Positions 18,028 through 35,589 of a stretch of DNA of 64,000 nucleotides are shown piece after piece. Numbering within the stretch: position 1 is the stretch's first letter; each line of letters begins with the position of its first letter. The DNA is from Escherichia coli (lineage in GTDB: Bacteria; Pseudomonadota; Gammaproteobacteria; Enterobacterales; Enterobacteriaceae): the NCBI RefSeq assembly GCF_016903815.1, contig NZ_CP069973.1, one strand, 5' to 3'. The translations under genes were made by a program, and so were the position numbers. Below the pieces are notes generated by a model. It saw only the letters and a list, made by a program, of their open reading frames with translations. It had not been told where the DNA came from and did no database searches.

Positions 18028-18043
18028 CTGCAGGGGACACCAT
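18028..18043 (+). repeat. att core: attR of the lambdoid prophage and attL of the adjacent island (argW 3' end)
   Basis: CTGCAGGGGACACCAT equals the last 15 nt of tRNA-Arg(CCU) argW plus T. The preceding sequence is not tRNA-like, so this is a partial copy. Confidence 0.85.
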
Positions 18044-18206: not shown

Positions 18207-19493
18207 ATGTCCAGAAATACCCTCAACAAATTAACAGACCGTCAGTGCAAAGCAGCTAAGCCACGAGACAAAACTTATAAATTGTCTGATGGTGGTGGTC
18301 TTTATCTTGAAGTATCCCAGACCGGGTCGAAGTATTGGCGAATGAAGTATCGCCGCCCATCAGATAAGAAAGAAGACAGACTTGCTTTTGGTGTATATCC
18401 AACCATTAGCTTACAAGACGCCAGAGAAAAACGAGACAACGCCAAAAAGTTGTTAGTCAAGGGGATAGATCCCAAAGCAGAGCAAAGAGCAGCAAAAGCA
18501 GAAGAAAAAGGCGCATTCACTTTTGAGACAATAGGACGTCAATGGGTTGAAAGCCACCAGATGTGGAACGAAGACCACCGAAAACGCGTACTTAGAAGCC
18601 TTGAAATGTATATTTTCCCTCACATTGGCACTTCGGATATTCGCAAACTGGAGGCGATGACAATTTTACCTTTGTTTAAGAAGGTAGATGACGCCGGGAA
18701 ACACGATACAGCCAACCGACTTAAACAACGAGTTAAGGACATCATACATAGCGCCCGTCTGAGCGGCATTAAGACAGAAATCATCACGAATGATCTCGAT
18801 GTCCGGTTAATGCAATATGAAACTAAGCATCATGCCGCACTACATCCCAGAGATTTACCAGACTTTTTCACTCGATTGGGCAGCTTTAAAGGTAATCCTC
18901 TTACCCGCCTTGCCATTGAGCTAACCATGTTGACATTTGTTCGTTCAAGCGAGTTAAGGTTTGCCCGTTGGAAAGAGTTTGACCTTGATCGGGCTGAGTG
19001 GATTATCCCTAAAAAAAGAGAGCCTATCGATGGTGTGAGGTTTTCCACCCGTGGCACAAAAACGGGAAAAGACGAACATATCGTGCTTCTTAGCCGTCAG
19101 GCTGTTTCTATTGTAAAGCAGTTGAGAGAACTAAGCGGAAGCTACGATGTTGTGTTTCCGAATGAAAGAAACACCAAAGGCGTGATGAGTGAAAACACGG
19201 TAAACAAGGCATTACGCTTAATGGGCTATAACACGCAAGAGGACGTAACTGGACATGGATTCCGTGCCACAGCCTGTAGTTCCCTGATGGAGTCCGGTTT
19301 GTGGCAGGAGGACGCAGTAGAGCGCCAGATGAGCCACAAAGAATATAAAGACGTTAAAAGAGCCTACAAGCACAAGGCTGATTACTTAGAAGAGCGCAAA
19401 CTAATGCTTCAATGGTGGGCAGATTATCTGGACGCCAATCGAGAAATACATATAAGCCCTTACGAGTTCGGAAGGAGAACACGCCGTGACTAA
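18207..19493 (+). CDS. int: Tyrosine integrase, P4/IntS type (DUF4102 arm-binding N-domain)
   Basis: 428 aa. The N-terminus LTDRQCKAAKPRDKTYKLSDGGGLYLEV..GSKYWRMKYR, the catalytic region with HGFRATA, and the C-terminus YLEERKLMLQWWADYLD are all typical of P4-family integrases. Confidence 0.92.
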   Translation: MSRNTLNKLTDRQCKAAKPRDKTYKLSDGGGLYLEVSQTGSKYWRMKYRRPSDKKEDRLAFGVYPTISLQDAREKRDNAKKLLVKGIDPKAEQRAAKAEEKGAFTFETIGRQWVESHQMWNEDHRKRVLRSLEMYIFPHIGTSDIRKLEAMTILPLFKKVDDAGKHDTANRLKQRVKDIIHSARLSGIKTEIITNDLDVRLMQYETKHHAALHPRDLPDFFTRLGSFKGNPLTRLAIELTMLTFVRSSELRFARWKEFDLDRAEWIIPKKREPIDGVRFSTRGTKTGKDEHIVLLSRQAVSIVKQLRELSGSYDVVFPNERNTKGVMSENTVNKALRLMGYNTQEDVTGHGFRATACSSLMESGLWQEDAVERQMSHKEYKDVKRAYKHKADYLEERKLMLQWWADYLDANREIHISPYEFGRRTRRD

Positions 19494-20241
19494 GATGACA
19501 GGACTAGATGCGTTTTATAACGAGTCAGAAGATAAAATCTGGTTTGGTAATCTGATCAGCGAACTGGCAAGACTAAACAATGAAAATGAAAGAATGATCG
19601 CTGCCGCTATCTTAAGTAACTACAGATTGAGCAAAGCTAAACCAGATACTTTAGGGGGGCTGGGCTTTTATCAGTTCGATTGGGTATCAGGTTTTACAAC
19701 TAATGACGACTTTGAAAAGCAGTGTGTGGAGTTTTTAGGTCTTCTGGCTATGGGGCATGAATACAGGGAGAGCCCGATACCGGGGGAAGAAGGGACTTTC
19801 AACGTTAGGAAAGGGGAAGACTTTTTATATCACGATGATGAGGATGATTGGTATGGGTCTTACGATTCGTTTTATTTCAAGCGCTCCGAGGTTGTGAACT
19901 TCTTCCCAGAACTGGATATGAATGTTCCAGATAACGAACCAGAAATTGGAGCACTGTCAAAAAAAGTAGAAAGAGAACAAAACTGGAGAGGAAAAGATAC
20001 GGCTTTAAAGATGATCGCCGGAATGGCGATTGCCTTATTTGAATCAAGCAAAGATTTCCATAGTGGAGGAAACCTTAGTATCAATAGGGTTAGTGCCCAA
20101 GTAATAGAAAACAACATAATATTCGGGAACGATGAAGACAGCGATACCCACCCAGATACATTTCGGAGATTGCTAACGAACGCTTTGGATAAGTACGCCC
20201 CCAAATTTAAGAAAAAAGCAACCAAAAAGCGTCCAAAATAA
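19486..20241 (+). CDS. Hypothetical protein overlapping the int stop; Lys-rich C-terminal tail
   Basis: 251-aa ORF (GTG 19486 or ATG 19495) ending KFKKKATKKRPK. I recognise no family. Confidence 0.6.
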   Translation: MTKMTGLDAFYNESEDKIWFGNLISELARLNNENERMIAAAILSNYRLSKAKPDTLGGLGFYQFDWVSGFTTNDDFEKQCVEFLGLLAMGHEYRESPIPGEEGTFNVRKGEDFLYHDDEDDWYGSYDSFYFKRSEVVNFFPELDMNVPDNEPEIGALSKKVEREQNWRGKDTALKMIAGMAIALFESSKDFHSGGNLSINRVSAQVIENNIIFGNDEDSDTHPDTFRRLLTNALDKYAPKFKKKATKKRPK

Positions 20242-21556: not shown

Positions 21557-22609
21557 ATGGAATTATACGATAAAGACGCGAGTCTATCCACAAAATCACA
21601 AGCCGTAATCAATCACATCAATGGTCGCACATTAGCTTATGTGAGATCAGTTACGCACAAACGTAATGAATTAAAGGCGGAGAATAAACGCCAATCATCA
21701 AAGGCTAACCACTGCATACCACCAGCTTGGACAAAGAAGAAATGGCGTACAATGAGGCGAGCTTTGTTTACTCTGGATGTCGAATCAACTAGTGGTATCC
21801 CCTACTCCTTTACCTTCAGACCCGTTAAGGGAACAACGCCAGAGAAATTCAACAAAGCGTTAAAGGCACTTACCAGATGGTTGACTTCGAAAGGCAATCA
21901 GTGGGTTTACGTCATGGAGTGGGCTCAACACCAGTCAGAGCCGCATGTACACGCAATAATTATGGTGAACGAAAGAAGCATTAATGGGCAAGCAGGCAAA
22001 ATTGTCAGCAAATGGGTAACACTGGCAAACAATGCAATCCCATCAAATGTTCCTCCCCAGTGGGATCTAGATTTGAAAGGTCAGCAATATTCAGAGCCTA
22101 CAAGGTGTATAGGTAAACAGATTGATTACATGGCAAAACCCGAAACTAAGTTAAATGACTTTAATAGAGAGGCGAGCAAGAGCCTATATGATTGGTCAGA
22201 TGCCAACGTTTGGGGTTATTCGAATGGCTGGGCGCGGCATGAGATAAAAAAAGAAACACTTTCTATCACTGGCTTTCATGCTGTAAGACGCATACTAAAA
22301 GCCATTCAGGCATCAAGGAAAGACAACTACAAAGTTAAGCGACAGATACAGCGTACATTGAAACGACAAGACATAAATCGCTCACCAATCACCCCGTTCC
22401 AAGCACCGTTAATTAGCAAACACGATTGGGATTTATCAGTGATAGCGGTCACCAAAGAGGCAGAGACAGAGCGCAGGGAGTTACTATCCTCACAGACAAT
22501 AAACTCGAACAAAGTACAAACCCACCCGCTGTTAAGGATGTTAAGAAAAGCACGAGTGAGAGCATCCAGAGCCAGAAGAGAAAGCGGAGGTTATGACCAT
22601 TACTACTAG
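21557..22609 (+). CDS. Putative rolling-circle replication initiator, HUH endonuclease (inovirus Gp2-like)
   Basis: 350 aa with three ordered motifs: ALFTLDV (res 69-75), WVYVMEW...PHVHAIIMV (HUH, res 129-137) and IDYMAKP (Y-x-x-K, res 189-195). The C-terminus is basic. Confidence 0.65.
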   Translation: MELYDKDASLSTKSQAVINHINGRTLAYVRSVTHKRNELKAENKRQSSKANHCIPPAWTKKKWRTMRRALFTLDVESTSGIPYSFTFRPVKGTTPEKFNKALKALTRWLTSKGNQWVYVMEWAQHQSEPHVHAIIMVNERSINGQAGKIVSKWVTLANNAIPSNVPPQWDLDLKGQQYSEPTRCIGKQIDYMAKPETKLNDFNREASKSLYDWSDANVWGYSNGWARHEIKKETLSITGFHAVRRILKAIQASRKDNYKVKRQIQRTLKRQDINRSPITPFQAPLISKHDWDLSVIAVTKEAETERRELLSSQTINSNKVQTHPLLRMLRKARVRASRARRESGGYDHYY

Positions 22610-23252: not shown

Positions 23253-23284
23253 CAAAAAACAAGCATAACGCAAAATTGCGTTAT
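23253..23284 (-). terminator. Rho-independent terminator of the two-gene cargo operon
   Basis: The minus strand reads ATAACGCAA-TT-TTGCGTTAT followed by GCTTGTTTTTT, about 125 nt after the gene B stop. Confidence 0.7.
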
Positions 23285-23407
23285 CAACTTAAAAGGTACG
23301 ATTGAATCTGACAGTCTGCTCTGAGCGAAATGTGGGCACGTTCACCATAAGTCTCCAGATTGAAACGAAATGATAGTGTTAAATGTTCGATAGTTACTTT
23401 TCTAAGC

Positions 23408-24400
23408 TCAACGTTCGTAATAGTAATCCGACACCTCAGTAAAATCTATTTCCTCCCTAGAAAGTAATGATTCCATCTCATCTAGTTTATCGATTTGAGG
23501 CAAAACACTTGTTGGTGAAATCACAACATTAAAGTCCTCATTATATCGGTGACCTACCCTTGTGAGCTCTTTACCTAATTGCAACAATATATAATCACGT
23601 AAAATAAGTTGATTCCGTCTAAATCGAATAAGACGATAGTAATGGAAGAAATCAGAACATTTTGATGAATCATAATTTCTACCATTCCACCCGGTTTTCC
23701 TCGTAGCTCGGAATAATGCTTGCTCTTGCGTATTTTTCCAAATGCTAAAATCAAAGTGACTTTTCGGGTTAGGATTTTCGTATGTTGCTTGAGGATAAAA
23801 ATTAGTAACACCAAATTGATGCTTGTCAATGATCTTTAAAGTCCGATTTTGTTCAGACAACATCCGCCTTAAGGACCTAGGAATTTCGAAACGCATTAGT
23901 TTGTTTTTATCCAAGATTCTTAATTCTCTTGGAAGCATCTCATGATCCCGTTCTAAATATCTTTCACACCGTTTCGGCACATACTGAAAATACACTGAAA
24001 AAAAACAAAATATATTATCAGAAACGAGAGGAGTAATATGTATTTTTTCTTGCTCAGGAACGTTTTGAACAAAATAGTATGCCGTTCCTTGCCAAATCAA
24101 CGATTGCGCTACTGCCTCCACCAATTCACGTATTGTTTCATCTACCGAGTATTTCCTATATCTAGCTTGTAAATTTCCAAACATTTTACGTATGAGTTCT
24201 TCGTCGTTAGTTTCGACTTGAAACAAATTGGTATCACCGTGATTTACAAAATTAAAAACTCTAGCAAAATCCTCATAAAACATCCTTTGATAGAAACCTG
24301 GTCGTTCATTCTTAGACTTGGTCAATAGTCTATCAACAAAACTTAATTGCTCAGGATCGACGCTATAACCGTAAAGGGGTATATTCTTGATAATTTTCAT
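23408..24400 (-). CDS. Cargo gene B: 330-aa soluble protein of unknown function
   Basis: Long AT-rich ORF, ATGA-overlapped with gene A. No TM segment and no catalytic or DNA-binding motif that I can recognise. Confidence 0.85.
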   Translation of the reverse strand: MKIIKNIPLYGYSVDPEQLSFVDRLLTKSKNERPGFYQRMFYEDFARVFNFVNHGDTNLFQVETNDEELIRKMFGNLQARYRKYSVDETIRELVEAVAQSLIWQGTAYYFVQNVPEQEKIHITPLVSDNIFCFFSVYFQYVPKRCERYLERDHEMLPRELRILDKNKLMRFEIPRSLRRMLSEQNRTLKIIDKHQFGVTNFYPQATYENPNPKSHFDFSIWKNTQEQALFRATRKTGWNGRNYDSSKCSDFFHYYRLIRFRRNQLILRDYILLQLGKELTRVGHRYNEDFNVVISPTSVLPQIDKLDEMESLLSREEIDFTEVSDYYYER

Positions 24401-26862
24401 TCAAAATCCTTATCGTATTCCACGCCAAAACGACGAGCCAACTCACTAACATGGTAATCGATCTTGAAGTCAATTTGCTCGAGTTGCGGGAAAATTTCGA
24501 GAGCACAAAAGAGATGCGATGCATCTGAATGGGAGTTTAAGAACTCTCTGACAACTTTGTTCGTATGAGATTTCCCTCGATTCATTCCCATTTGATCGCT
24601 AAAGCCATCATGTCTTGCGCGGCGCTCAAATTCCATTTTCCAGTTAAGACGAATCATATCTCTCGGTGATGCGCACAAGCTGAAATTGCGCGGATTTGAA
24701 AGAATCATCATTCTCTTCAAATACTGCTGTTTGTTGGGAACAGACTCGAGCCAAGACTTAAACCTATCAAGTACTGTTTTAGATAGTTTTGCATTATCGA
24801 AATAAGCACTGTAAAGGATAGCAAAACCTAGAACTGACATCAGATCGTTGATCGCGGATGAAAGGAGATGCAGTCGAAACTCGTTGTTTATATCGAGTTT
24901 CGGATCTACAAATTTGGTATCTGATGCCAGCAATGAGAGAACCATGAACATAGGGAATACCTTGCTCAGTTTATTTTCATCATTCTGTTCAAGCGCATGT
25001 ATACATTCCTCAGCCAACTCAAAATATATCTGTCCAAAATGATCCGGTAGTTCATCATCTTGCTCTTGTTCAATGATATGTCCCACAATTTCCACCCTAC
25101 CAAGAATAGCTATAGCTTCATCCTGTGTAACGACAAACTGTTTGAGCATTTCAGCAATATTAATTTCTGGTAATGCGTATAGCTTTTCAGAGTAGTGCTC
25201 GTACTTTCTGTATCTCTCCAAGAGCAGAGAAAGTTCATTAAACCAATGGGGAAACTTCAAATGATTATGTAGGCTAGCGAGAACGACTTGCGTTGCGGCT
25301 TCCGGCATCTTCATGTTTATCAGTGAGTTAACGAAATCTGGAACCATGTTTACGTGAAAATCGCATACTTCTGGCAGAATTTTAGAATATTGTTGTAATA
25401 ACTTCTGAACCGCCAACTGCTGGACGTACTTTGGTTTGGATAATCTCTGTCCTTCAATCTCTTTTTCGAATTCGATACGTTCTACGATAAAGGCCAACTC
25501 AACCTGCAGAAAAGCAGGCAAAGTGTGTAGAGAGGTCTCTGTCCAGATATCATCTTTAAAGAACTGCTCCAATTCTTTCTCAAAAGTAATCATGCGGCGT
25601 AACATTTCAAGGCAAAGATTGCTGCCTAATGCAGCCCATGCATCCGCAATTCCAACTTTTATCACCTTTTCCTCAAAATAATTAACGACATCAGACGGTG
25701 TAAAGGCTTTTTCAATGATCGTCTTCATTTTCCGAAGTTCACGTATACCAATATCGAACTGAAACTGTTGTGCATAAGTTAATATACGAGATGAGAATAG
25801 ACTGATGAGATCCAACCCGAGCTTGAAATCACCGGCTTTGAATGCAAGTTCAATATGGCCTACCAACCTATTGATAATTTCATTCTCTAACCAAAGATAA
25901 TTTGGTTCTTCTTCAACCGTTAATTGGCTCCTTGTTTTTAAAGCAATGGATGTTACACTGTCGCCAGCTAAGAACCATTGCTTATGTTTTATTCGTCTAG
26001 GGAACCAGTAACTTTGATAATCAATTCTGTGTTTCTGATTAAGGTAATGAAGAAGTAATGCCGAATAAACATTACTGAGAGCAGGTAAATTATCTCCGAG
26101 TCCTACTTTTTCACATATCAGGCGATCATCAATGTAGTTTAACTGCTCAAAGGCCAAATGTGCGGCTTTAGAGTGATGATTAGCTAAAGATACTGAATTC
26201 TTGGGATTAGACGCACCTTCGATGTGTCGTGCAATTCGTGGGAGTATTTCACTTCGGGCTAACTGATTTAGGTCAAAAAAATTGAATAATCTTTGACCTA
26301 ATGGGAACAGAGCTAAGGAACTAACAAGTGTCAGCAATGTTCCCATTGCATAAACGAAAAGACCGGGTTCAACCCCGAACAAGTGGAGAGCAGTTGCACT
26401 AAGACAAAACACCGCAGAAAGCACTAAAGTCCGCGAATACACATTACCTACCTGCTCGGTAGTAAGCATTTGTATAATATCTCGCCGAAGTCTGGTATAT
26501 CCTGTACTTAGAATGATACCTATTGTAGCAAAGTATATTGAAAATATAGCGGTAAGTATCTGTGCGTACAACCTAAGTTGATCAATATTAAATTTTTTTT
26601 CATCATAGCTAAGAGGATGAAGCAAAATCGTATTATTCCGAATATAATCTTCAACAAAACCCAGTGCAAATAACGTTAATATGACCCATAACAAATTTTT
26701 TAAACCTACCAACGCAAAAGACATAAAAACATGAGCGTTAGACTTAGCTTTAAAAACAGACGTACGATGTATGTATGACGCACGTTCTAAAATAAATCTA
26801 ACCCTCACAAGATCTGTTCTTAATTTCCAGAACCACTTTTGAGAAATAAGCCAAACCTTCAT
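24397..26862 (-). CDS. Cargo gene A: 821-aa membrane protein (4 predicted TM + ~630-aa helical cytoplasmic domain) of unknown function
   Basis: 2.46-kb ORF (ATG 26862; the track uses TTG 26874). Hydrophobic segments at about res 50-75, 107-127, 150-169 and 173-194, with a basic loop TRLRRD between TM2 and TM3. I recognise no domain. Confidence 0.85.
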   Translation of the reverse strand: MKVWLISQKWFWKLRTDLVRVRFILERASYIHRTSVFKAKSNAHVFMSFALVGLKNLLWVILTLFALGFVEDYIRNNTILLHPLSYDEKKFNIDQLRLYAQILTAIFSIYFATIGIILSTGYTRLRRDIIQMLTTEQVGNVYSRTLVLSAVFCLSATALHLFGVEPGLFVYAMGTLLTLVSSLALFPLGQRLFNFFDLNQLARSEILPRIARHIEGASNPKNSVSLANHHSKAAHLAFEQLNYIDDRLICEKVGLGDNLPALSNVYSALLLHYLNQKHRIDYQSYWFPRRIKHKQWFLAGDSVTSIALKTRSQLTVEEEPNYLWLENEIINRLVGHIELAFKAGDFKLGLDLISLFSSRILTYAQQFQFDIGIRELRKMKTIIEKAFTPSDVVNYFEEKVIKVGIADAWAALGSNLCLEMLRRMITFEKELEQFFKDDIWTETSLHTLPAFLQVELAFIVERIEFEKEIEGQRLSKPKYVQQLAVQKLLQQYSKILPEVCDFHVNMVPDFVNSLINMKMPEAATQVVLASLHNHLKFPHWFNELSLLLERYRKYEHYSEKLYALPEINIAEMLKQFVVTQDEAIAILGRVEIVGHIIEQEQDDELPDHFGQIYFELAEECIHALEQNDENKLSKVFPMFMVLSLLASDTKFVDPKLDINNEFRLHLLSSAINDLMSVLGFAILYSAYFDNAKLSKTVLDRFKSWLESVPNKQQYLKRMMILSNPRNFSLCASPRDMIRLNWKMEFERRARHDGFSDQMGMNRGKSHTNKVVREFLNSHSDASHLFCALEIFPQLEQIDFKIDYHVSELARRFGVEYDKDFE

Positions 26863-26973
26863 TATATCAATCAAGTGATACCTGCCTTCTCATCTCTACA
26901 TGCAACATAAAAATGCTTACTATGGTGGCAAACAAAATCAAGAATCATATGTTTGAACACTTTTTACGCACGA

Positions 26974-27002
26974 ATTATCCGGTGTAAGATACTTATAGTC
27001 AA
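26974..27002 (-). promoter_or_regulatory. Candidate sigma70 promoter of the cargo operon
   Basis: The minus strand reads TTGACT-N17-GATAAT, about 110 nt upstream of the gene A ATG. Confidence 0.4.
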
Positions 27003-27050: not shown

Positions 27051-27082
27051 AGACTAAGAAACGCGCCCAGCAAAGGCGCGTT
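27051..27082 (-). terminator. Terminator after the 58-aa ORF
   Basis: The minus strand reads AACGCGCC-TTTGCTG-GGCGCGTT followed by TCTTAGTCTT. Confidence 0.55.
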
Positions 27083-27087
27083 CTGCA

Positions 27088-27264
27088 TCAGGTAAGTTTG
27101 CTGGGGTCTACGGTTTCCATCCAATCTGGAGCAATTCCCAAACGTTCCGCTATCTCTTCGTTGGTCATGTCTTCAGTTGAGAAATTAGCCAGAGAATCGT
27201 TAACTTCAGGATAGTCAGGGGAGAGTAACAGGTATTCCCGCAACGCTTTCAGATCTTTTTCCAT
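27088..27264 (-). CDS. Small acidic ORF (58 aa), divergent from the recombinase gene
   Basis: GGAGCGTTAAA-ATG RBS. Translation MEKDLKALREYLLLSPDYPEVNDSLANFSTEDMTNEEIAERLGIAPDWMETVDPSKLT. Has its own terminator. Below the ORF-track cutoff. Confidence 0.55.
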   Translation of the reverse strand: MEKDLKALREYLLLSPDYPEVNDSLANFSTEDMTNEEIAERLGIAPDWMETVDPSKLT

Positions 27265-27435
27265 TTTAACGCTCCTTGTTTATTGACAGTCGAACGATGG
27301 TGAAGATTCTTGCCATCTCAAGTACAGGCAAGAAAATCCACCAGAACACCAAATTATCTCATAAGGTTAAATCGGTGTCGGGCTATTTCTTTCGGCTAGG
27401 TGAGTGTACCGCCTTAACCACCGGCAATTATCATT

Positions 27436-27560
27436 GTCTCAATTGGGTATACCGTAATGACAAGGTGATACAAAGTCTCAATAGGGTTGTATAGGAACAT
27501 TTTGACTACACAAAATGCATTATGTATCATTTGCACTTATATTCACAACCCTATTGAGAC
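27436..27560. promoter_or_regulatory. res-like recombinase binding region overlapping the recombinase promoter
   Basis: Three copies of (T/A)GTCTCAAT(T/A)GGGT: 27436-27448 (+), 27475-27490 (+) and 27545-27560 (-). The last two form a perfect 16-bp inverted repeat. TTGACT-N17-TATCAT (27502-27530) lies between them. The total span of ~125 bp is similar to Tn3-type res. Confidence 0.55.
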
Positions 27561-27566
27561 AATGCA

Positions 27567-28193
27567 ATGAACGTTAGAATTTACTGCCGAGCATCAACTG
27601 AGGGGCAACACGCTGATCGAGCACTTACCAGCCTACGTGAATTTTCAAAATCAAAAGGCTGGCAGATTGCAGGAGAGTATATAGAAAATGCTAGCGGGGC
27701 GAAGCTTGAGCGCGTAGAGCTTATGCGGCTATTGTCTGAAGCCCAGTCCGGCGATCTGTTGCTAGTGGAAGCTATAGATCGTCTGAGTCGCCTAGAACAT
27801 AGCGCATGGGTCGAACTGAAAGATACGCTCAACCGAAAAGGGTTAATCATCGTATCAATGGATTTACCAACGAGCTGGCAGATGGTCGAGATGGCAGGCA
27901 ATGACCTAACCAGCGGCATCCTGAGAGCCGTAAATGCCATGTTGATTGATATCCTTGCCACAATGGCACGGCAGGATTACGAAACACGTCGTAAACGCCA
28001 ACAGCAAGGCATTGAGCGAGCTAAAAGCGAAGGAATATACATTGGCAGGGAGAAAAATCAGGAAGCCCGAGAGATCGTTAGAGAGATGTTGGAGCAAGGA
28101 GTAAAACCTGAACTCATCATGAAGGCAGCAGGAATCAGCCGAGCGACTTACTACCGTATAAAAAGTGAGCTGTCAGTCGTAAAATCAGAATAA
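27567..28193 (+). CDS. Small serine recombinase (resolvase/invertase family, C-terminal HTH)
   Basis: 208 aa. VRIYCRASTEGQ (catalytic Ser), LLVEAIDRLSR, and the C-terminal HTH AAGISRATYYRIK. Confidence 0.9.
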   Translation: MNVRIYCRASTEGQHADRALTSLREFSKSKGWQIAGEYIENASGAKLERVELMRLLSEAQSGDLLLVEAIDRLSRLEHSAWVELKDTLNRKGLIIVSMDLPTSWQMVEMAGNDLTSGILRAVNAMLIDILATMARQDYETRRKRQQQGIERAKSEGIYIGREKNQEAREIVREMLEQGVKPELIMKAAGISRATYYRIKSELSVVKSE

Positions 28194-28327
28194 CCTTTGA
28201 AAGGTCGTCAGGCTTGTTTCATCTGCTAAAAGCCAGCATTTCTGACCATAATACCTGGGGGCACCTACTGGGGCACCCACCAAAATCGAAAGACAAATAA
28301 GTTATAATTCAATCTGTTAGTTTACTT

Positions 28328-28350
28328 TTCGATTCCTGCAGGGGACACCA
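28328..28350 (+). repeat. Right-end att: 23-nt copy of the argW 3' end (pawZ-like tRNA-Arg pseudogene fragment)
   Basis: TTCGATTCCTGCAGGGGACACCA equals the T-loop through CCA of argW as recalled. There is no upstream tRNA body. Confidence 0.85.
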
Positions 28351-28790
28351 GATACCCTTCAAACCAAATCTACCTTCACCCCGTAAAAGATGGGTTTGGC
28401 GCACACTAGCCCTATATCTACTCATTTTTACTGCAACAGGTTGAAATCTCAGCACTGTCAGAAAGCGCTGATGACTAAACAGCCCTGGGCCGGGCGATGT
28501 AACCATCATACAGAATCCTGATAGCGAAATATGGCGTGACTCGATACTTCACTCTGCAATGCATTCCTTGATGAATTCGCAGGCCCGTGATACTCGGGAC
28601 AGGTCGCTGAATGACGACAATGTCCTGGAAATCAGCGAACCGCGTATCCGGAGTACATTTGAGCGACTGTACCAGAACATGAATGAGGCGTTTGGATTAG
28701 GTGATTATTAGTTGGGCTAAGCATTTTTGTATTATTATTTTCCGGTTGAGGGATATGGAGATATCGACAACAACCGGAAAAAGTTTACGT

Positions 28791-30038
28791 CTATATTGCT
28801 GAAGGTACAGGCGTTTCCATAACTATTTGCTCGCGTTTTTTACTCAGGAAGAAAATGCCAAATAGCAACATCAGGCAGACAATACCCGAAATTGCGAAGA
28901 AAACTGTCTGGTAGCCTGCGTGGTCAAAGAGTATCCCAGTCGGCGTTGAAAGCAGCACAATCCCAAGCGAACTGGCAATTTGAAAACCAATCAGAAAGAT
29001 CGTCGACGACAGGCGCTTATCAAAGTTTGCCACGCTGTATTTGAAGACGGATATGACACAAAGTGGAACCTCAATGGCATGTAACAGCTTCACTAATGAA
29101 ATAATCCAGGGGTTAACGAACAACGCGCAGGAAAGGATACGCAACGCCATAATCACAACACCGATAAGTAATGCATTTTTTGGCCCTACCCGATTCACAA
29201 AGAAAGGAATAATCGCCATGCACAGCGCTTCGAGTACCACCTGGAATGAGTTGAGATAACCATACAGGCGCGTTCCTACATCGTGTGATTCGAATAAACC
29301 TGCATAAAAGACAGGAAAGAGTTGTTGATCAAAAATGTTATAGAAAGACCACGTCCCCACAATAAATATGACGAAAACCCAGAAGTTTCGATCCTTGAAA
29401 ACTGCGATAAAATCCTCTTTTTTTACCCCTCCCGCATCCGCCGCTATGCACTGGTGATCCTTATCTTTAAAACGCATGTTGATCATCATAAATACAGCGC
29501 CAAATAGCGAGACCAACCAGAAGTTGATATGGGGACTGATACTAAAAAATATACCGGCAAAGAACGCGCCAATAGCATAGCCAAAAGATCCCCAGGCGCG
29601 CGCTGTTCCATATTCGAAATGAAAATTTCGCGCCATTTTTTCGGTGAAGCTGTCAAGCAAACCGCATCCCGCCAGATACCCCAGGCCAAAAAAGAGCGCC
29701 CCCAGAATTAGACCTACAGAAAAATTGCTTTGCAGTAACGGTTCATAAACGTAAATCATAAACGGTCCGGTCAAGACCAGAATGAAACTCATACACCAGA
29801 TGAGCGGTTTCTTCAGACCGAGTTTATCCTGAACGATGCCGTAGAACATCATAAATAGAATGCTGGTAAACTGGTTGACCGAATAAAGTGTACCTAATTC
29901 CGTCCCTGTTAATCCTAGATGTCCTTTCAGCCAAATAGCGTATAACGACCACCACAGCGACCAGGAAATAAAAAAGAGAAATGAGTAACTGGATGCAAAA
30001 CGATAGTACGCATTTCTGAATGGAATATTCAGTGCCAT
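28791..30038 (-). CDS. cscB: Sucrose:H+ symporter CscB (MFS, LacY-like)
   Basis: 415 aa, MALNIPFRNAYYRFASSYSFLFFISWSLWWSLYAIWLKG... recognised as CscB. Confidence 0.95.
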   Translation of the reverse strand: MALNIPFRNAYYRFASSYSFLFFISWSLWWSLYAIWLKGHLGLTGTELGTLYSVNQFTSILFMMFYGIVQDKLGLKKPLIWCMSFILVLTGPFMIYVYEPLLQSNFSVGLILGALFFGLGYLAGCGLLDSFTEKMARNFHFEYGTARAWGSFGYAIGAFFAGIFFSISPHINFWLVSLFGAVFMMINMRFKDKDHQCIAADAGGVKKEDFIAVFKDRNFWVFVIFIVGTWSFYNIFDQQLFPVFYAGLFESHDVGTRLYGYLNSFQVVLEALCMAIIPFFVNRVGPKNALLIGVVIMALRILSCALFVNPWIISLVKLLHAIEVPLCVISVFKYSVANFDKRLSSTIFLIGFQIASSLGIVLLSTPTGILFDHAGYQTVFFAISGIVCLMLLFGIFFLSKKREQIVMETPVPSAI

Positions 30039-30099
30039 AATTACCTGCCTGTCGTTAAAAAATTCATGTCCTATTTAGAGATAAGAGCGGCCTCGCCGT

Positions 30100-31023
30100 T
30101 TACTTCTCACCTTCCAGTTCTTGTCGACATGGCAGCGCTGTCATTGCCCCTTTCGCTGTTACTGCAAGCGCTCCGCAACGTTGAGCGAGATTGATAATTC
30201 GTCGCATTTCTCTCTCATCTGTAGATAATCCCGTAGAGGACAGACCTGTGAGTAACCCGGCAACGAACGCATCTCCCGCCCCAGTGCTATCGACACAATT
30301 CACAGACATTCCAGCAAAATGGTGAACTTGTCCTCGATAACAGACCACCACCCCTTCTGCACCTTTAGTCACCAACAGCATGGCGATCTCATACTCTTTT
30401 GCCAGCGCGCATATATCCCGATCGTTCTGTGTTTTTCCACTGATAAGTCGCCATTCTTCTTCCGAGAGCTTGACGACATCCGCCAGTTGTAGCGCCTGCC
30501 GCAAACACAAGCGGAACAAATGCTCGTCTTGCCATAGATCTTCACGAATATTGGGATCGAAGCTGACAAAACCTCCGGCATGCCGGATCGCCGTCATCGC
30601 AGTAAATGCGCTGGTACGCGAAGGCTCGGCAGACAACGCAATTGAACAGAGATGTAACCATTCGCCATGTCGCCAGCAGGGCAAGTCTGTCGTCTCTAAA
30701 AAAAGATCGGCACTGGGGCGGACCATAAACGTAAATGAACGTTCTCCTTGATCGTTCAGATCGACAAGCACCGTGGATGTCCGGTGCCATTCATCTTGCT
30801 TCAGATACGTGATATCGACACCCTCAGTTAGCAGCGTTCTTTGCATTAACGCACCAAAAGGATCATCACCGACCCGACCTATAAACCCACTTGTTCCGCC
30901 TAATCTGGCGATTCCCACCGCAACGTTAGCTGGCGCGCCGCCAGGACAAGGCAGTAGCCGCCCGTCTGATTCTGGCAAGAGATCTACGACCGCATCCCCT
31001 AAAACCCATACTTTGGCTGACAT
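30100..31023 (-). CDS. cscK: Fructokinase CscK (PfkB family)
   Basis: 307 aa. MSAKVWVLGDAVVDLLPE..., GGAPANVA and DSTGAGDAF motifs. Confidence 0.95.
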   Translation of the reverse strand: MSAKVWVLGDAVVDLLPESDGRLLPCPGGAPANVAVGIARLGGTSGFIGRVGDDPFGALMQRTLLTEGVDITYLKQDEWHRTSTVLVDLNDQGERSFTFMVRPSADLFLETTDLPCWRHGEWLHLCSIALSAEPSRTSAFTAMTAIRHAGGFVSFDPNIREDLWQDEHLFRLCLRQALQLADVVKLSEEEWRLISGKTQNDRDICALAKEYEIAMLLVTKGAEGVVVCYRGQVHHFAGMSVNCVDSTGAGDAFVAGLLTGLSSTGLSTDEREMRRIINLAQRCGALAVTAKGAMTALPCRQELEGEK

Positions 31024-31127
31024 TTTTTTCCCTTAAATTCATCTGACTTACGCATAGTGATAAACCTCTTTTTCGCAAAATCGTCATGGATTTACTAAAA
31101 CATGCATATTCGATCACAAAACGTCAT

Positions 31128-31205
31128 AGTTAACGTTAACATTTGTGATATTCATCGCATTTATGAAAGTAATGGACTTTATTTTTATAAAAGTTAACGT
31201 TAACA
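31128..31205. promoter_or_regulatory. Two identical palindromic operators (candidate CscR sites) in the cscKB/cscA divergent promoter region
   Basis: AGTTAACGTTAACA occurs at 31128-31141 and 31192-31205. The core GTTAACGTTAAC is a perfect 12-bp palindrome, as expected for a LacI-family operator. Confidence 0.6.
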
Positions 31206-31238
31206 ATTCACCAAATTTGCTTAACCAGGATGATAAAA

Positions 31239-32672
31239 ATGACGCAATCTCGATTACATGCGGCGCAAAACGCACTAGCAAAACTTCACGAGCGCCGAGG
31301 TAACACTTTCTATCCCCATTTTCACCTCGCGCCTCCTGCCGGGTGGATGAACGATCCAAACGGCCTGATCTGGTTTAACGATCGTTATCACGCGTTTTAT
31401 CAACATCACCCGATGAGCGAACACTGGGGGCCAATGCACTGGGGACATGCCACCAGCGACGATATGATCCACTGGCAGCATAAGCCTATTGCGCTAGCGC
31501 CAGGAGACGAGAATGACAAAGACGGGTGTTTTTCAGGTAGTGCTGTCGATGACAATGGTGTCCTCTCACTTATCTACACCGGACACGTCTGGCTCGATGG
31601 TGCAGGTAATGACGATGCAATTCGCGAAGTACAATGTCTGGCTACCAGTCGGGATGGTATTCATTTCGAGAAACAGGGTGTGATCCTCACTCCACCAGAA
31701 GGAATCATGCACTTCCGCGATCCTAAAGTGTGGCGTGAAGCCGACACATGGTGGATGGTTGTCGGGGCGAAAGATCCAGGCAACACGGGGCAGATCCTGC
31801 TTTATCGCGGCAGTTCATTGCGTGAATGGACCTTCGATCGCGTACTGGCCCACGCTGATGCGGGTGAAAGCTATATGTGGGAATGTCCGGACTTTTTCAG
31901 CCTTGGCGATCAGCATTATCTGATGTTTTCCCCGCAGGGAATGAATGCCGAGGGATACAGTTACCGAAATCGCTTTCAAAGTGGCGTAATACCCGGAATG
32001 TGGTCGCCAGGACGACTTTTTGCACAATCCGGGCATTTTACTGAACTTGATAACGGGCATGACTTTTATGCACCACAAAGCTTTTTAGCGAAGGATGGTC
32101 GGCGTATTGTTATCGGCTGGATGGATATGTGGGAATCGCCAATGCCCTCAAAACGTGAAGGCTGGGCAGGCTGCATGACGCTGGCGCGCGAGCTATCAGA
32201 GAGCAATGGCAAACTTCTACAACGCCCGGTACACGAAGCTGAGTCGTTACGCCAGCAGCATCAATCTATCTCTCCCCGCACAATCAGCAATAAATATGTT
32301 TTGCAGGAAAACGCGCAAGCAGTTGAGATTCAGTTGCAGTGGGCGCTGAAGAACAGTGATGCCGAACATTACGGATTACAGCTCGGCACTGGAATGCGGC
32401 TGTATATTGATAACCAATCTGAGCGACTTGTTTTGTGGCGGTATTACCCACACGAGAATTTAGATGGCTACCGTAGTATTCCCCTCCCGCAGGGTGACAT
32501 GCTCGCCCTAAGGATATTTATCGATACATCATCCGTGGAAGTATTTATTAACGACGGGGAGGCGGTGATGAGTAGCCGAATATATCCGCAGCCAGAAGAA
32601 CGGGAACTGTCGCTCTATGCCTCCCACGGAGTGGCTGTGCTGCAACATGGAGCACTCTGGCAACTGGGTTAA
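31239..32672 (+). CDS. cscA: Sucrose-6-phosphate hydrolase / invertase CscA (GH32)
   Basis: 477 aa from MTQSRLHAAQNALAKLHERRGN, with AGGA 8 nt upstream. Has WMNDPNG, FRDP and ECP GH32 motifs. Confidence 0.95.
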   Translation: MTQSRLHAAQNALAKLHERRGNTFYPHFHLAPPAGWMNDPNGLIWFNDRYHAFYQHHPMSEHWGPMHWGHATSDDMIHWQHKPIALAPGDENDKDGCFSGSAVDDNGVLSLIYTGHVWLDGAGNDDAIREVQCLATSRDGIHFEKQGVILTPPEGIMHFRDPKVWREADTWWMVVGAKDPGNTGQILLYRGSSLREWTFDRVLAHADAGESYMWECPDFFSLGDQHYLMFSPQGMNAEGYSYRNRFQSGVIPGMWSPGRLFAQSGHFTELDNGHDFYAPQSFLAKDGRRIVIGWMDMWESPMPSKREGWAGCMTLARELSESNGKLLQRPVHEAESLRQQHQSISPRTISNKYVLQENAQAVEIQLQWALKNSDAEHYGLQLGTGMRLYIDNQSERLVLWRYYPHENLDGYRSIPLPQGDMLALRIFIDTSSVEVFINDGEAVMSSRIYPQPEERELSLYASHGVAVLQHGALWQLG

Positions 32673-32679
32673 CATAATA

Positions 32680-33675
32680 TCAGGTGGAACAACGGATCAA
32701 CAGCGGGCAAGGGATCCGCGTCACTCTTCCCCCTTCACGATCTTCAATAATATGCAATGCAGCTTCCCGCCCGATAATGTCATGTGGAAGCTGAATTGTG
32801 GTCAGCGGCGGTAAAAACAGATGCCCGACGCCAACCAGATTATCAAAGCCCATTACGGCGACATCCTGCGGGATACGTACCCCCTTCGCCAGGAGAACCT
32901 GATAAGCGACAAAGGCTGCGCGATCGTTACCACATATCAGAACATCAAAATCTGGTTTGCCAGATTTGAAGTGGGCATTGAGTAAACTTGCGAGATCGGT
33001 GTAGTGATCATCACCTGTTGCCATGTGAAATTGTTTCACCTCAGCCAGATCTCGTCCAGCATCACGCCAGGCCTGCTCAAATCCCTGCCGACGATACCCT
33101 GTTGCCAACGCACTTTCCGGTAGCCAGAAGCATAACGGTTGACGATAGCCCGCCGCGAGCAAATGCTGTGTTGATTCATATTGTGCAGTGTAATCATCAG
33201 GGATATAACTGGGTAACGCTGGGTCATCCGCCACACAGTTCGCCAATACAATATTTTCACCATACAGAGACTCAGGCAGCGTGATATGTCGCAGCCCCAT
33301 TGTAGTATAGATAATGCCATCCGGACGGTGGGCAAGCAGCTGACGAGCAGCACGGGCAGCGTCATCTTCAGAAAAAATATTGATTAAAAAACTATTCCAG
33401 CCGAACTCGCTGGCGGTTTGCTCAATGGCAAGCAGAATATCAACAGAGAAAGGAGTGGTAGCAGTGTCCTGCGCCAGCACGGCGAGAGTCGACGGCTTAC
33501 GTCCTTGAGCGCGCATCTTACGGGCGGAAAGATCAGGAACATAATTCAGGGTCTGGATTGCCTGCAATACGCGGTCACGCGTTGCAGGACGCACAGATTC
33601 TGCATTATGCATCACCCGGGAGACTGTCATCATCGACACTCCCGCCAGGCGTGCGACATCCTTTAATGAAGCCAT
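32680..33675 (-). CDS. cscR: LacI-family repressor CscR
   Basis: 331 aa from the internal Met, MASLKDVARLAGVSMMTVSRVMHN... The 397-aa track ORF has a non-homologous N-terminal extension. Confidence 0.92.
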   Translation of the reverse strand: MASLKDVARLAGVSMMTVSRVMHNAESVRPATRDRVLQAIQTLNYVPDLSARKMRAQGRKPSTLAVLAQDTATTPFSVDILLAIEQTASEFGWNSFLINIFSEDDAARAARQLLAHRPDGIIYTTMGLRHITLPESLYGENIVLANCVADDPALPSYIPDDYTAQYESTQHLLAAGYRQPLCFWLPESALATGYRRQGFEQAWRDAGRDLAEVKQFHMATGDDHYTDLASLLNAHFKSGKPDFDVLICGNDRAAFVAYQVLLAKGVRIPQDVAVMGFDNLVGVGHLFLPPLTTIQLPHDIIGREAALHIIEDREGGRVTRIPCPLLIRCST

Positions 33676-33917
33676 ACCCAAGCCGTTTGCCGTAAAACGG
33701 GCACTGTAGCAGAAACAGACGTCACTGGCGAGATCCAACGATATTCTCGACGCCCTATCACCCGACACGGCAATACAATAAAAAATAACAATAATTCCCG
33801 GACAATTGTACCCAATTCCGCCTCTGTTCTCGCCAACGAGTAACCATGTAGGCAAGTAGGTAAAACATGCCAACTGGCATCGCCAACCTGGAGAAGAAAA
33901 TATAAATATGGATCATT

Positions 33918-34136
33918 GTGCTGCCGCTGTATCCCGACATCAGCCCGGAAATTATTGCGATTGCTATCGGTTCAGGTGCGATTGGCTGCACGATCGTTAC
34001 GGACTCGCTTTTCTGGCTGGTGAAGCAATATTGCGGCGCTACGCTCAATGAAACATTTAAATACTATACGACCGCGACATTTATCGCTTCAGTCGTCGCT
34101 CTGGCGGGCACATTCCTGCTGTCATTTATCATCTAA
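33918..34136 (+). pseudogene. dsdX: dsdX 3' remnant (D-serine transporter, GntP family), truncated by the csc islet
   Basis: [71 protein letters not shown] is the C-terminus of DsdX. There is no upstream remainder and no dsdC. Confidence 0.85.
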
Positions 34137-34153
34137 GCGCAAAGAGACGTACT

Positions 34154-35482
34154 ATGGAAAACGCTAAAATGAACTCGCTCATCGCCCAGTATCCGTTGGT
34201 AAAGGATCTGGTTGCTCTTCAAGAAACCACCTGGTTTAATCCTGGCACGACCTCATTGGCTGAAGGTTTACCTTATGTTGGCCTGACCGAACAGGATGTT
34301 CAGGACGCCCATGCGCGCTTATCCCGTTTTGCAGCCTATCTGGCAAAAGCATTTCCTGAAACTGCTGCTACTGGGGGGATTATTGAATCAGAACTGGTTG
34401 CCATTCCGGCTATGCAAAAACGGCTGGAAAAGGAATATCAACAACCGATCAGCGGGCAACTGCTACTGAAAAAAGATAGCCATTTGCCCATTTCCGGCTC
34501 CATAAAAGCACGCGGCGGGATTTATGAAGTCCTGGCACATGCAGAAAAACTGGCTCTGGAAGCGGGGTTGCTGACGCTTGAAGATGACTACAGCAAACTG
34601 CTTTCTCCGGAGTTTAAACAGTTCTTTAGCCAATACAGCATTGCTGTGGGCTCAACCGGAAATCTGGGGTTATCAATCGGCATTATGAGCGCCCGCATTG
34701 GCTTTAAGGTGACAGTACATATGTCTGCTGATGCCCGGGCATGGAAAAAAGCGAAACTGCGCAGCCATGGCGTTACGGTCGTGGAATATGAGCAAGATTA
34801 TGGTGTTGCAGTCGAGGAAGGACGTAAAGCAGCGCAGTCTGACCCGAACTGTTTCTTTATTGATGACGAGAATTCCCGCACGTTGTTCCTTGGGTATTCC
34901 GTCGCTGGCCAGCGTCTTAAAGCGCAATTTGCCGAGCAAAGTCGTATTGTCGATGCTGATAACCCTCTGTTTGTCTATCTGCCGTGTGGTGTTGGCGGTG
35001 GTCCTGGTGGCGTCGCATTCGGGCTTAAACTGGCATTTGGCGATCATGTTCACTGCTTTTTTGCCGAACCAACGCACTCCCCTTGTATGCTGTTAGGCGT
35101 CCATACAGGATTACACGATCAGATTTCTGTTCAGGATATTGGTATCGACAACCTTACCGCAGCGGATGGCCTTGCAGTTGGTCGCGCATCAGGCTTTGTC
35201 GGGCGGGCAATGGAGCGTCTACTGGATGGCTTCTATACCCTTAGCGATCAAACCATGTATGACATGCTTGGCTGGCTGGCGCAGGAAGAAGGCATTCGTC
35301 TTGAACCTTCGGCACTGGCGGGTATGGCCGGGCCTCAGCGCGTGTGCGCATCAGTAAGTTACCAACAGATGCACGGTTTCAGCGCAGAACAACTGCGTAA
35401 TGCCACTCATCTGGTGTGGGCGACGGGAGGTGGAATGGTGCCGGAAGAAGAGATGGAGCAATATCTGGCAAAAGGCCGCTAA
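34154..35482 (+). CDS. dsdA: D-serine ammonia-lyase (dehydratase)
   Basis: 442 aa, [22 protein letters not shown]...SGSIKARGG (PLP Lys motif). Confidence 0.97.
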
Positions 35483-35589
35483 TTACTTTTCAATTCAGCA
35501 TCGCCATCCTTTCCCTGGGTGAGCGATGCTGCCGATGGCGCAGACTTAAGGTCCCTGGTCTTACCTGCTATAACCCCCTCCTTTTATCA

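Follow-up and report, generated by a model that had tools for sequence, protein, structure and literature searches.

A membrane protein and a partner with a predicted portal fold form a mobile two-gene cassette, a candidate anti-phage system, in the argW island of Escherichia coli

What might two adjoining genes of hypothetical function be doing in the variable DNA next to a tRNA gene of an Escherichia coli chromosome? The genes in question lie on the minus strand of a 64,000-nucleotide stretch of contig NZ_CP069973.1 (assembly GCF_016903815.1), which as a whole is referred to here as the window. Namely, gene A (24397..26874) encodes a membrane protein of 825 amino acids, while gene B (23408..24400) encodes a soluble protein of 330 amino acids (WP_020233472) for which a portal fold is predicted; the products of both are annotated as hypothetical in RefSeq. 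An earlier note on this DNA had put the pair forward as a candidate undescribed anti-phage system. The reading that we have come to favor is that A-B would be an autonomous, horizontally mobile, two-gene anti-phage system which uses a membrane-anchored mimic of the phage portal. We regard this statement, taken as a whole, as plausible rather than likely, while a defence role of A-B as such is, in our judgement, probable.

The two genes are obligate partners. In a set of 40 loci found among 185,579 species-representative genomes, two of them fragments of A cut by contig ends, B stands directly after A in all 38 complete loci, which come from alpha-, beta-, gamma- and delta-proteobacteria. What is more, the start of B overlaps or abuts the stop of A in nearly all of these loci; in the window, as had been noticed before, the two reading frames share a four-nucleotide ATGA overlap at 24397-24400. 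Such constant co-occurrence across distant taxa is what the earlier idea of a functional pair implied. Across Gamma-, Alpha-, Beta- and Deltaproteobacteria close homologues are 63-74% identical in the case of A and 53-63% identical in the case of B, and both reading frames are intact in 38 of 39 loci. In Kaistia nematophila (locus L023, 12426-13457) a frameshift splits B into two open reading frames (ORFs) next to an intact A, which indicates that this host, at least, survives without a functional B. The partnership also extends to A-like genes on Paenibacillus and Burkholderia plasmids, which are followed by B homologues of 298 and 278 amino acids, respectively (hhalign probability 97.8% and 96.8%), and to a metagenomic protein of 1,145 amino acids (P0334), in which both partners are fused in a single ORF, with an A-like part at residues 2-789 and a B-like part at residues ~816-1145 (hhalign probability 99.3%, E 2e-20). 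This protein is the only fusion among the 150 representatives listed, and could possibly be the product of a frameshift or of an assembly artefact.

What kind of protein is B? Neither A nor B contains a sequence domain known to PADLOC, Pfam, NCBIfam, PHROGs (E<=1 beyond noise) or the sequence profiles of the PDB, and B, as stated earlier, has no hydrophobic segment by hydropathy. In this sense, the previous impression of two proteins free of recognizable domains holds at the level of sequence. It does not hold at the level of predicted structure, where B resembles a portal and the greater part of A an alpha-solenoid. In particular, when the model of B was compared with the PDB using Foldseek, all of the top 50 hits were portals, with E-values between 2e-4 and 1e-2 and probabilities of up to 1.00. 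The order of structural elements in the predicted model is that of the canonical portal topology, with counterparts of wing, stem, clip and crown: a beta-rich wing (residues 60-172) is followed by a long helix (175-196), a low-confidence segment at the position of the clip (197-244) and a 39-residue helix (245-283), after which come short C-terminal helices. The equivalent of the clip proper, residues 197-226, is modelled with low confidence in the monomer. The best conserved block of the protein, residues 210-261 (...NPNP..FDF..W...RATR.TGWNGR...SDFF..RLIRFRRNQ), falls in this low-confidence, clip-like segment between the two long helices, and its last stretch, RLIRFRRNQ, marks the place where the long helix starts; B as a whole is basic, with a pI of 8.2. 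No relative of either A or B was found among 50,697 phage genomes, which for B were searched by tblastn, and the top neighbour families of B include no terminase or capsid families, i.e. no morphogenesis module of the kind that accompanies portals. On the basis of this medium-confidence model, B is best described as a putative, trimmed portal-fold protein.

Protein A places this partner at the membrane. Hydropathy gives four hydrophobic segments (residues 43-71, 98-121, 144-165 and 166-189), preceded by a basic N-terminus with 10 K/R against 2 D/E that forms an amphipathic helix. Together with the positively charged loop between the second and third transmembrane (TM) helices (YTRLRRD), this N-terminus indicates an N-in/C-in topology, just as had been deduced for A before. 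Beyond the TM helices, the predicted structure is a cytoplasmic alpha-solenoid of ~630 amino acids with no enzyme fold. As the C-terminus of A is cytoplasmic, B is expected to be bound to A and to act on the cytoplasmic side of the inner membrane. An exhaustive profile search retrieves 940 representative clusters at E<=1e-3 (288 at E<=1e-30) and thereby places A in a large superfamily, whose members reach from Proteobacteria to Firmicutes and are mostly full-length (820-900 amino acids) at ~20% identity. Even at this overall identity, TM2 and its loop are the best conserved part of the protein, which suggests that the membrane domain of A is functional rather than a passive anchor. Residues W12, S284, W286, W324 and P606-D607-x-x-G610 are invariant in the divergent homologues. 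Among 54 such divergent homologues, none matches a PADLOC or Pfam family, apart from three single marginal PADLOC hits with E ~1e-3 and two proteins that touch DUF2254 (PF10011) marginally, at E 6.6e-4; the protein of the window itself does not hit the latter family. A few homologues, including some UniRef entries, carry the automatic labels 'DUF2254' or 'YagU-like membrane protein', and the literature on DUF2254 was uninformative. A further homologue search, with a profile built from divergent sequences, led for the most part to the same close clade and to no names of use.

How does the cassette spread? In E. coli, the module is present in 151 of 5,426 complete genomes (2.8%), invariably on the chromosome, and the complete island in 145; the carriers listed are mostly human isolates. 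The G+C content of the cassette lies between 35 and 52% in hosts whose own G+C ranges from 37 to 71%; in 34 of 41 loci it falls below the flanking value, the mean difference being 9 points. This constancy across hosts suggests frequent recent transfer from a pool of moderate G+C rather than long residence. Homology between cassettes at the DNA level is limited to the two ORFs plus ~40 nucleotides upstream. The cassette is, to judge from its nucleotide sequence and surroundings, horizontally mobile and moves alone. Flanking transposon-like repeats were considered as a vehicle and rejected, as none were found and the homology ends at the ORFs. Among 2.9 million viral contigs, the cassette turned up in only three, each time at the edge of a predicted prophage. 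As to individual carriers, two enterobacterial prophages (L002 and L009) hold the cassette between the integrase and icd, and in Tritonibacter scottomollicae (L058:1-13458) it is prophage cargo that follows immediately upon genes for tail fibres and lysis. A variant with 74% identity, that of L002, was examined as a possible second E. coli allele and dismissed, as it is absent from the complete E. coli genomes. Natural knock-outs occur as well: in E. coli NZ_OZ501684.1 and NZ_CP018121.1, insertion sequences have landed inside the 3.9-kb module (IS1A) and inside the island (ISEc23).

The company that the cassette keeps bears directly on its possible role. We scanned the 293 nearest ORFs with PADLOC in a pooled fashion, 150 of them being the two nearest on each side and the remaining 143 the next ring. 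The nearest 150 include components of MADS (mad8 six times, mad3 four times), AriA, PDC-M60A, RT_UG29, PycC, AbiL, GajB and PtuA, as well as a type IIG enzyme (E=0), Shango SngC (1.7e-262), type I restriction endonucleases (REases), Upx, NERD-UvrD, a type II methyl-directed REase and DRT reverse transcriptases. In the next ring there are type I and III methyltransferases, PD-Lambda-4_A (5e-302), Dsr2, PDC-M60B, mad2, PDC-S05 and DinG. Each of the 10 contexts that we labelled with Pfam is mobile or variable DNA, such as an island or the end of a prophage, and 5 of the 10 hold defence domains within 10 kb (AbiEii with Lit, SIR2, TIR with AbiC, AAA_13 with KAP, and SLFN helicase with Fic). Namely, besides the argW island of the window, the cassette is found in the integrase-icd slot of an enterobacterial lambdoid prophage, in a Hyphococcus element with a large serine recombinase, next to AbiEii and Lit in Vibrio fluvialis, in a Pectobacterium island with toxin-antitoxin (TA) modules and SIR2, next to TIR and AbiC in Enterobacter, next to AAA_13 and a KAP NTPase in another Vibrio, at the end of a prophage-like island in V. 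cholerae, after the prophage tail and lysis genes of Tritonibacter, and in Halopseudomonas together with an SLFN helicase, Fic, MazG and Ymh. Often the cassette adjoins TA modules (RelE/MqsA, HigBA, VapC or ParE). The location in or near defence islands that had been foreseen for homologues is therefore seen around many loci in the form of defence genes and of prophage and island ends, but as a qualitative tendency only.

An independent indication comes from machine learning. In Table S10 of DefensePredictor (Science 2026, PMC13092281), B (WP_020233472.1) is listed as an uncharacterised 'Predicted novel defense gene'. Its log-odds values, which range from 5.58 to 8.79, average 7.16, the strict cutoff being 4, and according to the same source neither HHblits nor Foldseek relates it to a known defence protein; within the tables of that study, B appears in prediction table S10 only, and not among the cloned or validated units. 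The pair can consequently be called undescribed in the sense that we found no paper naming or characterizing it, but B had already been predicted by others. Nor did we find any paper that ties a portal-like or portal-fold protein to bacterial immunity.

How, then, might such a pair protect a cell? We infer a function in defence in which portal mimicry would be the sensing principle and the membrane the site of output. In particular, the solenoid of A would keep B close to the inner membrane on its cytoplasmic side, where B would present portal-like surfaces, foremost among them the highly conserved clip-equivalent segment between the long helices. Late in infection, the phage partners of the portal, such as the large terminase, scaffold or capsid proteins, head-completion adaptors or portal subunits, would engage B. 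One possible outcome is that the packaging and assembly machinery would be sequestered at the membrane; another is that a signal would pass through the solenoid of A to the module made up of TM2 and its loop, whereupon the membrane would be perturbed and the infection would abort. In a guard variant of the same mechanism, the solenoid of A would hold B in the way in which the repeat domain of Avs4 holds the phage portal, and a genuine portal would displace B and activate A.

That said, a number of observations weigh against this picture. To begin with, there is no recognizable effector domain in either A or B, for which reason the output step must be taken as conjecture. Furthermore, the TM-scores between B and portals are only 0.3-0.38, at a sequence identity of 5-15%, meaning that the likeness is structural only, and the model of B has a mean pLDDT of 70, with a disordered clip-like region. 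No sequence link between B and portals was detected in Pfam, PHROGs or the PDB, even with a broadened profile at E<=10. Given this, and given that B has no phage relatives, our claim is that of a portal fold and not that of membership in a portal family. As for the neighbourhood, the apparent enrichment in defence genes is qualitative, and in the contexts of the window, L003 and L056 there is no known defence gene, just integrases and hypothetical genes. Finally, the overall validation rate of DefensePredictor is 45%, and gene A is absent from its Table S10 down to a log-odds of ~4.5 (PMC13092281).

It is instructive to compare A-B with systems that are already known. At E<=1, no PADLOC v2.0.0 model whatsoever matches A or B, and this includes the PDC, HEC, Rst_, PD-T4/T7/Lambda, Bunzi and Olokun models; in other words, the match to a named system or to a housekeeping function that could have ended the matter was not found. 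Closest in architecture is Kiwa, a two-gene operon of defence islands that encodes the inner-membrane protein KwaA, with four TM helices, and the soluble cytoplasmic protein KwaB, and that has no enzymatic effector domain. As in Kiwa, a four-TM protein is here combined with a soluble partner. However, A is about four times the size of KwaA and carries a solenoid of 630 amino acids, and the portal fold predicted for B has no reported counterpart in KwaB. In line with this, neither A and B (PADLOC, Pfam, E<=1) nor the 54 divergent A homologues match KwaA, KwaB or DUF4868. In the case of Zorya, A and B match none of the Zor models of PADLOC and neither MotA_ExbB nor OmpA of Pfam. RexAB of phage lambda combines a membrane channel, RexB, with a cytoplasmic sensor, RexA. 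It is similar in concept to A-B in being carried by a mobile element and in joining a multi-TM protein to a soluble partner, and abortive infection through depolarisation of the membrane would be a plausible output. On the other hand, there is no sequence or profile similarity between the two systems, their proteins share neither size nor fold, and sensing and effector functions may be divided differently between the components.

Two further comparisons concern the portal itself. Relative to the portals of phages and gene transfer agents (GTAs), such as those of HK97, lambda (B), 80alpha/SaPI1 and RcGTA, B is smaller (330 against 360-700 amino acids). Unlike them, it belongs to no portal family of Pfam or PHROGs, never stands beside terminase or capsid genes, has no relative in phage genomes, and is always paired with a membrane protein, to which it is once fused. 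Among the Foldseek hits of B, at rank 40, is PDB entry 8dgf, 'Avs4 bound to phage PhiV-1 portal'. Avs4 (AVAST type 4), an NLR-like sensor by which portal proteins of phages are recognised, ties the portal fold to immunity, as A-B would: the helical-repeat sensor domain of Avs4 wraps around a portal, and here a helical-repeat protein, A, partners a protein with a predicted portal fold. The differences are that A is embedded in the membrane and has no STAND ATPase, nuclease or other effector domain, and that the portal protein in the case of Avs4 comes from the phage, whereas the portal-fold protein B is encoded by the cassette of the host. To our knowledge, none of the defence systems catalogued so far has a component with a portal fold. 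With respect to the proposed target stage, namely head assembly and packaging, A-B resembles the capsid and terminase interference of SaPIs and PICIs, which like its carrier are integrative elements beside prophages, and also a Listeria prophage anti-terminase system (bioRxiv 10.1101/2025.02.27.640495). These systems, however, rely on small terminase-like or capsid-remodelling proteins, none of which is reported to have a portal fold or a membrane anchor, and the element carrying A-B is devoid of packaging genes.

Would the same observations be accounted for equally well by something other than a decoy acting late in infection? One can argue that A-B acts at the entry stage instead, with a putative ring of B that conducts or clamps DNA at the membrane, so that incoming phage DNA would be captured or blocked, be it by superinfection exclusion or by a local defence resembling that of Kiwa or Zorya. 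Proteins with a portal fold form rings that conduct DNA, A is anchored in the membrane with B tethered on its cytoplasmic side, B is basic and has the conserved RLIRFRRNQ at the start of its long helix, and the cassette is often cargo of prophages and islands, as are genes of the Sie type. Yet no DNA-binding or nuclease domain was detected in A or B, and the periplasmic loops of A are short and contain no obvious sensor of phage attachment. All in all, we consider action at entry unlikely, although it deserves to be kept in mind.

The frequent proximity of TA modules invites another thought, which is that A could be a membrane-active toxin and B its antitoxin-like partner, the two serving addiction or competition between elements by stabilising their carriers or excluding rivals, with any anti-phage effect being incidental. 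A cassette that always resides on mobile or variable DNA, is translationally coupled, keeps a fixed gene order and is foreign in composition would fit this description. Nevertheless, proteins of 825 and 330 amino acids are far larger than those of classical TA pairs, a natural A-B fusion is hard to square with an antitoxin being degraded more quickly than the toxin, and the combination of a frameshifted B and an intact A in Kaistia (L023) would kill the cell, were B an essential antitoxin. In addition, the machine-learning prediction and the defence-island context favour immunity. For these reasons, we hold a role in addiction to be quite unlikely.

It is also conceivable that A-B has nothing to do with immunity and serves some membrane function, such as transport, stress response or envelope maintenance, being carried on islands by chance. 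The automatic 'DUF2254' and 'YagU-like membrane protein' labels, the marginal contacts of 2 of the 54 distant members with DUF2254, and the high conservation of TM2 may all be read in this way. What speaks against it is the very patchy distribution (2.8% of E. coli genomes; 40 loci among the species representatives), the foreign composition of the cassette, and the nature of its neighbours, which are defence and mobile-element genes rather than metabolic operons; moreover, we know of no precedent for a portal-fold partner in transport systems. An ordinary membrane function is, in our opinion, improbable. Last, the notion that the locus is the relic of a decayed phage or GTA-like element, in which B would be a true but degraded portal, A a phage membrane protein without relation to it, and neither would have a function in the cell today, has in its favour the predicted fold of B and the copies at prophage ends, but is largely refuted and very improbable indeed, in view of the strong purifying conservation (53-74% identity over four proteobacterial classes, in a superfamily of 940 clusters), the fact that A and B always travel together and alone, with no terminase, capsid or other morphogenesis genes nearby, the absence of relatives from the 50,697 phage genomes, the presence of the pair on a mere 3 of 2.9 million viral contigs, and the intact ORFs in 38 of 39 loci.

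Returning to the portal-mimic reading, what would follow if it were true? In its boldest form, it would make A-B the first case of immunity based on a portal that was domesticated from a virus: B, tethered to the membrane by A, would be a decoy that the packaging and head-assembly machinery of the phage mistakes for its own portal vertex, whereby the terminase would be jammed or diverted, or else A would be triggered to collapse the membrane; this we put forward tentatively, as a possibility that is rather less than likely. We rate A-B as a categorically new kind of system, it being understood that its portal likeness comes from a medium-confidence model and that its function is predicted. An 'integrated decoy' of this type would act broadly, because every tailed phage must use a portal, and would be hard for phages to escape, in analogy to the integrated decoys of plant NLRs. 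If A-B is protective at all, it would constitute a widespread system with no sequence relation to any catalogued one, and the principle at work, if the reading is right, would be new: a structural fold of viruses, encoded by the host itself, would serve as bait at the membrane or as a poison subunit. Since the interfaces between portal, terminase and scaffold are conserved in tailed phages, such a mechanism would matter for broad-range immunity, and it would also bear on the prediction of resistance to phage therapy, on portal assembly and on terminase docking.

Turning to the operon itself, most of what the earlier note had said about its layout stands, with some qualifications. Gene A more likely starts at TTG 26874 than at ATG 26862, from which the 821 residues of RefSeq entry WP_020233471 and of the note are counted; the TTG lies four codons further out and is favoured because the resulting MIDIMKVW fits the homologue consensus MIDxLK(I/V)W, which makes 825 residues the better estimate. 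About 100 nucleotides upstream of gene A there is indeed a promoter-like TTGACT-N17-GATAAT (26974..27002, minus strand), which has the top score in the region (10/12). However, promoter-like sites in this region are no more common than chance (15 observed against 14.6 expected in shuffled sequence), and this one is not kept in other loci, where DNA homology begins only ~40 nucleotides upstream of A. Similarly, the hairpin plus T-run described as a terminator is present ~125 nucleotides past the stop of B (23255..23284, minus strand), but its stem (23284..23265) is weak, with 8 pairs of which 3 are G-C. A strong terminator on the same strand (27059..27083), with a 10-pair stem containing 6 G-C pairs, follows an upstream 58-amino-acid ORF (27088-27264, minus strand) and would insulate the A-B operon from upstream transcription, which supports the view of a self-contained unit. 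The AT-richness of the locus is likewise real, the G+C content being 36-39% over 23-27 kb and 43-51% in the flanks. The 58-amino-acid ORF is acidic, is preceded by a good Shine-Dalgarno sequence and corresponds to phrog_35119 (E 4.5e-30). We considered it as a third component and rejected it, as it is followed by a terminator of its own and is not a conserved neighbour of A-B in other loci.

The element that carries the operon in the window is 10.3 kb long and is bracketed by two att-like copies of a 15-nucleotide core from the 3' end of argW, CTGCAGGGGACACCA, the left one at 18028..18042 and the right one at 28336..28350, both on the plus strand. This core occurs exactly twice in the window, with 0.01 occurrences expected by chance. 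While ARAGORN found no tRNA gene in the window, positions 28328-28400 align to an annotated tRNA-Arg and its flank in island-free genomes, and the assignment to an argW island is in this way confirmed. On the plus strand, and outside the A-B system, the element encodes a P4-type tyrosine integrase (18207..19493), an HUH rolling-circle Rep protein of the REP_ORF2-G2P-like kind (21557..22609) and a serine resolvase/invertase (27567..28193); an HTH_17 (AlpA-like) gene, A-B and the 58-amino-acid ORF complete its content. Integrated in tandem with it is a P22/lambda-like prophage, which borders on the element with its torI end. The former idea of a satellite next to a helper prophage is thus borne out as far as the tandem prophage at argW is concerned, but not with respect to the satellite, as we found no packaging, capsid or terminase-related genes, and none that could redirect capsids, in the element.

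Several minor features of this region may be added. The C-terminal part of Rep matches phrog_30534 (E 3e-151), and approximately 25% of the island, A-B excluded, is shared with a prophage region of O157:H7 EDL933 at 93% identity. Directly upstream of the resolvase/invertase gene, at 27432-27564, there are three copies of a 16-17-nucleotide motif, GTCTCAATAGGGTTGT / CATTGTCTCAATTGGGT, in inverted and direct orientation, and a fourth copy is located at 20077-20091, 7.4 kb away but within the island. The repeats at 27432-27564 resemble a recombinase site of the res type with several subsites, or perhaps a switch; promoter-like hexamers are present on both strands between their arms. To the right of the island (28300-35500) lie a DUF4942 gene fragment, the csc genes for sucrose utilisation and a truncated dsdX pseudogene, followed by dsdA, which suggests that the argW-dsd region is a composite of several past insertions.

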